DNA of 16,119 nucleotides from a virus (lineage: Duplodnaviria > Heunggongvirae > Uroviricota > Caudoviricetes). The position numbers were made by a program, and so were the translations under genes. A model generated the notes under the pieces. It had not been told where the DNA came from. It searched no databases and saw only the letters and a list, made by a program, of their open reading frames with translations. The stretch is from positions 1 through 16,119 of the IMG/VR virus record IMGVR_UViG_2526164619_000006; one strand, given 5' to 3'. Of the stretch, positions 8,276 to 9,241 are shown one piece after another; the stretch's first letter is position 1; each line of letters starts with the position of its first letter.

Positions 8276-8502
8276 TATCGCGTCCTCAACAATGAATTTT
8301 GTGATGCAGTGCCTTGTGCCTCCAGGTGACGTTAACCAGTTAACAATTAACGCCGGATTAGTTGATGCTCGTTACGCCCGTAAAATACCGCCTTACTGCT
8401 TTAACTGTTCCGCGTGCGCATAGCCGCATTCACCGCATCACAAAATTGGTAATGCTGCCAACTTACTGATTTAGTGTATGATGGTGATTTTAAGGTGCTT
8501 GC

Positions 8503-8778
8503 GTGGCTTCCATTTCCATCAGATGTCCTTCCTGCTCCGCTACTGAAGGCGTGGTGCGTAACGGCAAAAGCACTGCCGGATATCAGCGCTATCTCTGCTC
8601 TCATTGCCGTAAAACATGGCAACTACAGTTCACTTACACCGCCTCTCAGCCCGGTACGCACCAGAAAATCATTGATATGGCCATGAATGGCGTCGGATGT
8701 CGCGCCAGTGCACGCATTATGGGCGTTGGCCTCAACACGGTTTTACGTCACTTAAAAAACTCAGGCCGCAGTCGGTAA
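8503..8778 (+). CDS. insA: IS1 InsA
   Basis: GTG start; [40 protein letters not shown].. is a variant of IS1 InsA. Confidence 0.9.
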
Positions 8779-9200
8779 CCTCGCGCATACAACCGGGCAG
8801 TGATGTGATTGTCTGCGCTGAAATGGACGAACAGTGGGGCTACGTCGGTGCTAAATCACGTCAGCGCTGGCTGTTTTACGCGTATGACAGGATACGGAGG
8901 ACGGTTGTGGCGCACGTCTTCGGTGAACGCACTCTGGCCACACTGGAGCGTCTTCTGAGCCTGCTGTCGGCCTTTGAGGTCGTGGTATGGATGACGGATG
9001 GCTGGCCGCTGTATGAATCACGCCTGAAGGGAAAGCTGCACGTTATCAGCAAGCGTTACACTCAGCGCATTGAGCGACATAATCTGAATCTGAGACAACA
9101 TCTGGCAAGGCTGGGACGGAAGTCACTGTCGTTCTCAAAATCGGTGGAGCTGCATGACAAGGTCATCGGGCATTATCTGAACATAAAACACTATCAGTAA
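8697..9200 (+). CDS. insB: IS1 InsB (expressed as InsAB' by -1 frameshift)
   Basis: 167-aa ORF matching IS1 InsB (..[42 protein letters not shown]..). Confidence 0.88.
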
Positions 9201-9241
9201 GTTGGAGTCATTACCATCAGAACGGTAAATTTCGTTACTGC

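Follow-up and report, generated by a model that had tools for sequence, protein, structure and literature searches.

The locus raises the question of whether the IS1 copy that separates the two arms of a Shigella flexneri prophage was acquired by simple insertion or marks the site of a deletion. An earlier note, made from the sequence alone, had described minus-strand early genes on the left of the element and plus-strand genes of the nin or late-regulatory type on the right. It had also pointed to the absence of N-cI-cro-O-P type genes between them and of an 8 to 9-bp direct repeat at the element, and had read this pattern as the scar of an IS1-mediated adjacent deletion or recombination. The window, i.e. 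the whole stretch of 16,119 nucleotides that was analysed, is identical to contig AKMY01000016.1 of the draft assembly GCA_000268165.1 and ends one base short of the contig end. This assembly belongs to Shigella flexneri K-315 (PMC6397287).

The genes potC and potD are located immediately left of the integrase gene in the window, as in three relatives (L001, L004 and L013). In E. coli relatives one strand shows the conserved order int, xis, exonuclease, ydfD/DUF1482 and dicB, followed by dicF, ydfC/ydfB/DUF1391 and the repressor. The other strand of the relatives carries a cro-like gene, ydaT, an O-like HTH gene, a gene for a DnaC- or P-like ATPase, DUF1627 and DUF977, and continues with QueH, sok/hokD, DUF968, RusA and Q. 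In the window the minus strand left of IS1 contains the integrase gene, fragments of the exonuclease gene, DUF1482 (ydfD-like) and dicB, and the plus strand right of IS1 contains DUF1627 without its N-terminus, DUF977, QueH, sok/hokD, DUF968, RusA and Q (Table 1). The strand arrangement described in the earlier note is confirmed, with a left arm from the integrase through dicB and a right arm from the DUF1627 remnant through Q. The order of the arms and the attachment site are those of the DicB/Rac/Qin type, and we classify the window as a lambdoid prophage of this type in decay, integrated beside potC. The repressor, cro, ydaT and the replication genes are absent between the flanks in the window, whereas a divergent repressor/cro pair and replication genes are present in every intact relative examined. 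The absence of immunity and replication genes noticed earlier is real, but the lost set is not literally N-cI-cro-O-P and corresponds to that of DicB/Rac/Qin-type prophages instead.

Table 1. Coordinates of prophage genes, insertion sequences and deletion breakpoints in the window.
Feature	Position	Strand	Remarks
IS4, in integrase gene	939-2364		1,426 bp; 12-bp duplication CAGCTTCTGCTG
IS911, in exonuclease gene	3512-4759		1,248 bp; duplication CCG; 99.8% identity
IS600, in exonuclease gene	5821-7083		1,263 bp; duplication CAG; 99.8% identity
DUF1482 (ydfD-like) gene	7899..8099	-	
dicB	8087..8275	-	62 aa; full-length Pfam DicB match
Left deletion breakpoint, flank CACAAAATT	8439..8447		172 bp upstream of dicB start codon
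IS1 (IS1F-type isoform), complete	8448..9215	+	768 bp; no target-site duplication; from isoform identity and boundary scan
IS1 left inverted repeat (IRL)	8448..8470	+	
insA	8503..8778	+	91 aa; Zn_ribbon_InsA and HTH_Tnp_IS1 domains (Pfam)
insB reading frame	8697..9200	+	DDE_Tnp_IS1 (Pfam); uninterrupted from frameshift site to stop codon
A6C slippery motif	8754..8760	+	putative -1 frameshift to InsAB' transposase; position from sequence, function from PMC12428005
IS1 right inverted repeat (IRR)	9193..9215	+	
Right deletion breakpoint, flank ATCAGAACG	9216..9224		inside DUF1627 gene after codon 129
DUF1627 remnant	9242..9598	+	C-terminal 118 codons from first ATG; EIQ24491.1, SFK315_1198
DUF977 pseudogene	9614..10039	+	TGG to TAG at 9830-9832 (W73*) compared with E. 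coli relatives
IS629/IS1203-type, between QueH and sok/hokD	10948-12253		1,306 bp; duplication GCG
Second IS1, partial, inverted	15916-16119		IRR facing inward

The element between the two arms is a complete IS1. The span 8439-9224 given for it previously does contain the element, but its exact limits are 8448 and 9215, and the remainder consists of 9 bp of flanking DNA on each side. The inverted-repeat arms at the ends pair over 24 nt (8447-8470 with 9193-9216) and are 88% complementary. The Pfam domains of the transposase were identified with E-values of 1e-18 (PF03811), 5e-30 (PF12759) and 1e-74 (PF03400), the reading frames of insA and insB are both open, and the length, the terminal repeats, the frames with their frameshift and the isoform identity all agree with membership in the IS1 family. 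The copy is 99.2% identical to an element annotated in RefSeq as IS1F family (L005) and 91.0% identical to an IS1A copy (L006). Judged from its sequence, this IS1 is structurally intact and potentially active. The IS1 transposase is produced by a -1 frameshift at A6C, transposition is mainly replicative, and the IRL has a promoter role (PMC12428005). The sole promoter-like site near the left junction (8455-8482) overlaps the IRL and is directed into insA. An annotated ORF of 73 aa on the minus strand (8401-8622) runs from the left end of IS1 into the flank upstream of dicB; it lacks any Pfam match and is in all likelihood spurious.

The nonamers abutting the element, CACAAAATT on the left and ATCAGAACG on the right, are identical at only four of nine positions. 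All boundary placements shifted by no more than 6 bp from the IS1 ends were scanned for direct repeats 7-14 bp long, and even with one mismatch allowed none of 9-14 bp was present. A displaced 7-8-mer containing one mismatch was the sole match and is attributable to chance. The lack of an 8 to 9-bp repeat was therefore confirmed by the scan, and no duplication appears under a different placement of the boundaries, a possibility which the earlier note had raised itself. The locus does not show the 8-9 bp duplication and the otherwise intact target of a simple, unrearranged IS1 insertion.

Comparison with intact prophages defined the two breakpoints to the base. In all 18 intact relatives (18/18) the terminal 300 bp of the left flank can be aligned exactly through position 8447. 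Beyond this position the relatives read CACTTTAAAAAGGG... and continue into dicF, and this stretch is missing from the window. The right flank begins exactly at 9216 in 7 of 10 relatives; in the other three, which are more divergent (about 84% identity), the alignment begins 2 bases past 9216. In the relatives a distance of 4,559-5,176 bp separates the breakpoints, between which there is no microhomology, and order and orientation of the flanks agree with those in the window. The flanks are colinear and non-adjacent, and the breakpoints coincide with the IS ends, which is the arrangement of an IS-associated deletion. The comparison with intact prophages that had been proposed as a check thus gave a clear answer, namely colinear flanks separated by 4.6-5.2 kb of immunity and replication genes.

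The interval is annotated in the relatives with DicF, ydfC, ydfB, DUF1391, the repressor, cro, YdaT, an HTH protein or replisome organiser, an ATP-binding protein and the N-terminus of DUF1627. DicF was located by Rfam at 6035-6086 of the potC-site prophage L001, where its 3' end lies 11 nt past the left breakpoint; an Rfam search of the window detected no DicF. The frame of the DUF1627 remnant is open from 9218 and covers positions 49-155 of the 155 positions of the Pfam profile. According to these annotations, the lost DNA comprises dicF, ydfC/ydfB/DUF1391, a repressor of the RacR/DicA/cI type, cro, ydaT, the O-like HTH gene, the DnaC- or P-like gene and the N-terminal half (129 codons) of DUF1627. 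The same alignments settle the case of a simple IS1 insertion without any deletion, the duplication of which was obscured by point mutations. That duplications can decay is the sole point in its favour. The two nonamers, matching at 4/9 positions, are each identical to sites that lie 4.6-5.2 kb apart in the relatives, and the genes between these sites are missing. This reading is refuted, and we assign it a negligible probability.

Joining the two flanks in silico without IS1 gave a sequence to which none of 5,426 complete E. coli genomes has a counterpart (none covers at least 80% of it). A related genome with the flanks contiguous at these breakpoints, which the earlier note had considered as a counter-example, was consequently not encountered in this set. 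Matches of about 60% coverage, in MRE162 and KL53, represent an IS-less deletion with different breakpoints; they were rejected as relatives that join the flanks, as they show an independent deletion in a different prophage at rspB. In this Qin-like prophage of E. coli MRE162 (L002) the immunity region is also deleted from just upstream of dicB, and dicB is now located beside DUF977. Compared with K-315, the left breakpoint lies 68 bp further left, the right one coincides with the 3' end of the O-like gene, the junction is free of any IS, and both prophage and host are different. The join in L002 (6428-6712), also present in KL53, CFSAN051542 and HH107, shows an overlap of about 12 bp at the junction. 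This deletion is a convergent, independent loss of the immunity region.

Both junctions of K-315 were also found in independent sequence data. Contigs of GCA_049894805.1 (L008 and L010) span 7011-8520 and 9143-10386 with 100% identity and cross both junctions, and the Logan assembly of SRR066117 (L011) crosses the left junction, again at 100% identity. Exact look-up showed that lineage-specific proteins are shared only by K-315, GCA_049894805.1 and two Logan read-set assemblies, none of which is closed. The short-read contigs of GCA_049894805.1 reach 73 bp into IS1; this verifies the junctions and is compatible with one or two copies of the element. This last property is relevant for an assembly artefact, in which two IS1 copies around an intact immunity and replication region would have been collapsed into one and the interval skipped. 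The window is indeed a draft contig (AKMY01000016.1), this isoform of IS1 occurs more than once, the contig breaks off within the second copy, and copy number is not distinguishable from contigs of the other assembly that end so close to the junctions. We nevertheless consider an artefact very unlikely, because the contig passes coherently through five different ISs, and the disrupted integrase, exonuclease, DUF977 and methylase genes are consistent with real decay. In addition, the predicted N-terminal DUF1627 fragment, which would border the second IS1 copy, is not contained in the protein set that includes the K-315 proteins; this is a weak test, as its outcome varies with the allele and with the gene calls.

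The window contains six IS copies within 16 kb, two of which are IS1. The IS4 transposase has 448 aa with Nterm_IS4 and DDE_Tnp_1 domains. The exonuclease gene of 2.47 kb is broken by both IS911 and IS600. The orfB of IS600 is split into pieces of 55 and 159 aa, and for this reason the copy looks defective. The IS629/IS1203 element is 96% identical to an annotated copy in L004, its transposase is distributed over three ORFs, and an ALIL frameshift pseudoknot was detected by Rfam at 11802-11918. Two features directly right of this element have been retained intact (12256-12581), namely sok, an antisense RNA with an Rfam score of 121.6 bits, and the ORF for the hokD toxin. The other elements provide an internal control for the IS1. 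IS4, IS911, IS600 and IS629 are flanked by perfect duplications (12, 3, 3 and 3 bp) with no target DNA missing, and because these four are simple insertions the IS1 stands out: among the five complete ISs it alone is without a duplication and located at missing DNA.

The second IS1 is 100% identical to the first across the available 204 bp, and the contig ends within it. It cuts a DNA methyltransferase gene about 220 nt from the gene start. The segment 9216-15915 is therefore bracketed by two IS1 copies, the second of which is inverted and located at the contig end, and it could have originated from another lambdoid prophage, either by inter-prophage IS1 recombination or by IS1-flanked composite transposition. 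The right part is also a mosaic, as 9216-10947 is 98.3% identical to the potC-site prophage L001, whereas 12254-15915 is 98.2% identical to the ompW-site prophage L003 and only 88.7% to L001. Such mosaicism is, however, normal among lambdoid phages, the modules are ordered and oriented exactly as in one intact prophage, and a chimera would require more events and a coincidental landing in register, so that its probability appears to be low indeed. An origin of the two inverted IS1 copies by replicative inversion was rejected, since the intervening segment is not inverted relative to intact prophages.

An IS1-associated deletion of either kind, by adjacent deletion or by recombination between two IS1 copies, has very probably taken place at this locus. 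The exact breakpoints, the missing interval and the lack of a duplication support the reading of the earlier note, and they do not separate the two routes. Adjacent deletion is the route that we favour, with about an even chance of being the correct one. IS1 would first have landed at what is now one of the junctions; the candidate sites are a position closely downstream of dicF and codon 130 of DUF1627. The InsAB' protein, made by the A6C -1 frameshift, would then have carried out an intramolecular replicative transposition and joined one IS end to a target on the same molecule, 4.6-5.2 kb away. In the deletion outcome the intervening DNA would exit as a circle with one IS copy. The chromosome would retain one IS1 with one old and one new junction, and for this reason there would be no 9-bp duplication. 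Only two events are required.

IS1-promoted adjacent deletion is a classical phenomenon, reportedly described by Reif and Saedler in 1975 and by Turlan and Chandler in 1995. In the classical adjacent deletions of the gal region of E. coli K-12 the IS1 is likewise kept at the junction without a 9-bp duplication, one flank is old and one is new, and the deletions are kilobase-sized and start exactly at the IS end. The K-315 event differs from these in that it was deduced from comparative genomics, and its parental single insertion was not found. Missing duplications in general have been ascribed to adjacent deletion or IS-IS recombination, and in a long-term evolution experiment with E. coli all of the IS-associated deletions (14/14) were adjacent deletions after an earlier insertion (PMC11708052). 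Similar to K-315, IS copies without duplication coincide with deletions in these lines (PMC11708052); the lines differ from K-315 in the IS family (IS150) and in that earlier time points show the prior insertion, whereas K-315 comes without an ancestor.

Either junction may be the older one. No relative with IS1 at either site alone was detected in the 5,426 complete E. coli genomes or by exact protein look-up, and because of this the order of the events is unsupported. Synthetic intermediate junctions, consisting of the IS1 end, the duplication and the dicF side or of the N-terminal side of DUF1627, the duplication and the IS1 start, had no exact site match in complete E. coli genomes. The exact junction strings gave 0 hits in GTDB species representatives and JGI metagenomes. 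A search for flank, IS1 and flank revealed that IS1 near dicB in E. coli sits elsewhere, namely in the exonuclease gene, ydfD or dicB.

These data bear also on the other route, in which two IS1 copies inserted independently in direct orientation, one downstream of dicF with the duplication CACAAAATT and one in DUF1627 with the duplication ATCAGAACG, and homologous recombination deleted the interval together with one IS1. The surviving hybrid IS1 would keep one copy of the duplication from each insertion, which predicts the observed mismatched 9-bp flanks, each identical to the relatives at its own site. The IS density of the window is high, with two IS1 among the six ISs, and IS1 has repeatedly inserted in the exo-ydfD-dicB region of E. 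coli. Recombination between IS copies is a recognised source of missing duplications (PMC11708052) and of rearrangements in Shigella (PMC8072062). On the other hand, this route requires three events instead of two, neither the single nor the double insertion was found in the 5,426 complete E. coli genomes, and an exact look-up among about 15 billion proteins did not return the predicted N-terminal DUF1627 fragment of 130 residues (129 aa plus R). Recombination between two IS1 copies can be regarded as a tentative but realistic alternative to the favoured adjacent deletion.

Since the repressor, cro and the replication genes are lost, the prophage should no longer be able to set up immunity or to replicate and is presumably a dead remnant. 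Further damage is evident from the interrupted integrase and exonuclease genes, the nonsense codon in DUF977 and the methylase gene cut by IS1. Two cryptic lambdoid prophages of K-12, Qin and Rac, and the prophages located at potC and ompW in pathogenic E. coli have the same module order (int-xis-exo-ydfD-dicB-(dicF)-immunity-replication-DUF1627-DUF977-...-RusA-Q) with 88-99% identity. The K-315 copy differs from these relatives by its six IS elements and by the loss of the DNA that begins with dicF and ends halfway through DUF1627. Qin of K-12 has presumably also lost its replication genes and has kept dicA, dicC and dicF.

DicB is a division inhibitor and has also been reported to protect against some phages. 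The dicB gene of K-315 is intact, but, judged by the layout of the Qin dicB operon, it is cut off from dicF and from the operon promoter region, which adjoins the repressor. At the junction of IS1 and dicB no minus-strand promoter-like site directed outward toward dicB was seen. There is a slim chance that the deletion was non-neutral; it might have arisen by a single-step IS1 movement with deletion and without duplication, of the kind proposed in PMC11708052, and might also have been selected for the joint removal of the repressor, dicF and the operon promoter. If this were true, expression of the intact dicB would now depend on the new IS1 context.

The event is of a known kind, an ordinary IS-associated deletion in an IS-rich prophage, and fits the known IS-driven pseudogenisation and genome reduction in Shigella. 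Many ISs in Shigella genomes, a role of these elements in pseudogenisation and increased non-homologous recombination have been described (PMC8072062). For K-315 the potC-site prophage is now documented as non-inducible and non-replicative, which matters little beyond annotation. The exact breakpoints could act as a lineage marker, and the locus is a clean illustration that a missing duplication at an IS can reveal a deletion.

Several unrelated E. coli strains have also acquired IS1 by simple insertion in the exonuclease-ydfD-dicB region of related prophages (L005, about 7550-8317; L006, about 7903-8670; L017, 4438-5135), and one of these insertions is located inside dicB itself. This recurrence of IS1 suggests either a hot spot or selection against the operon.
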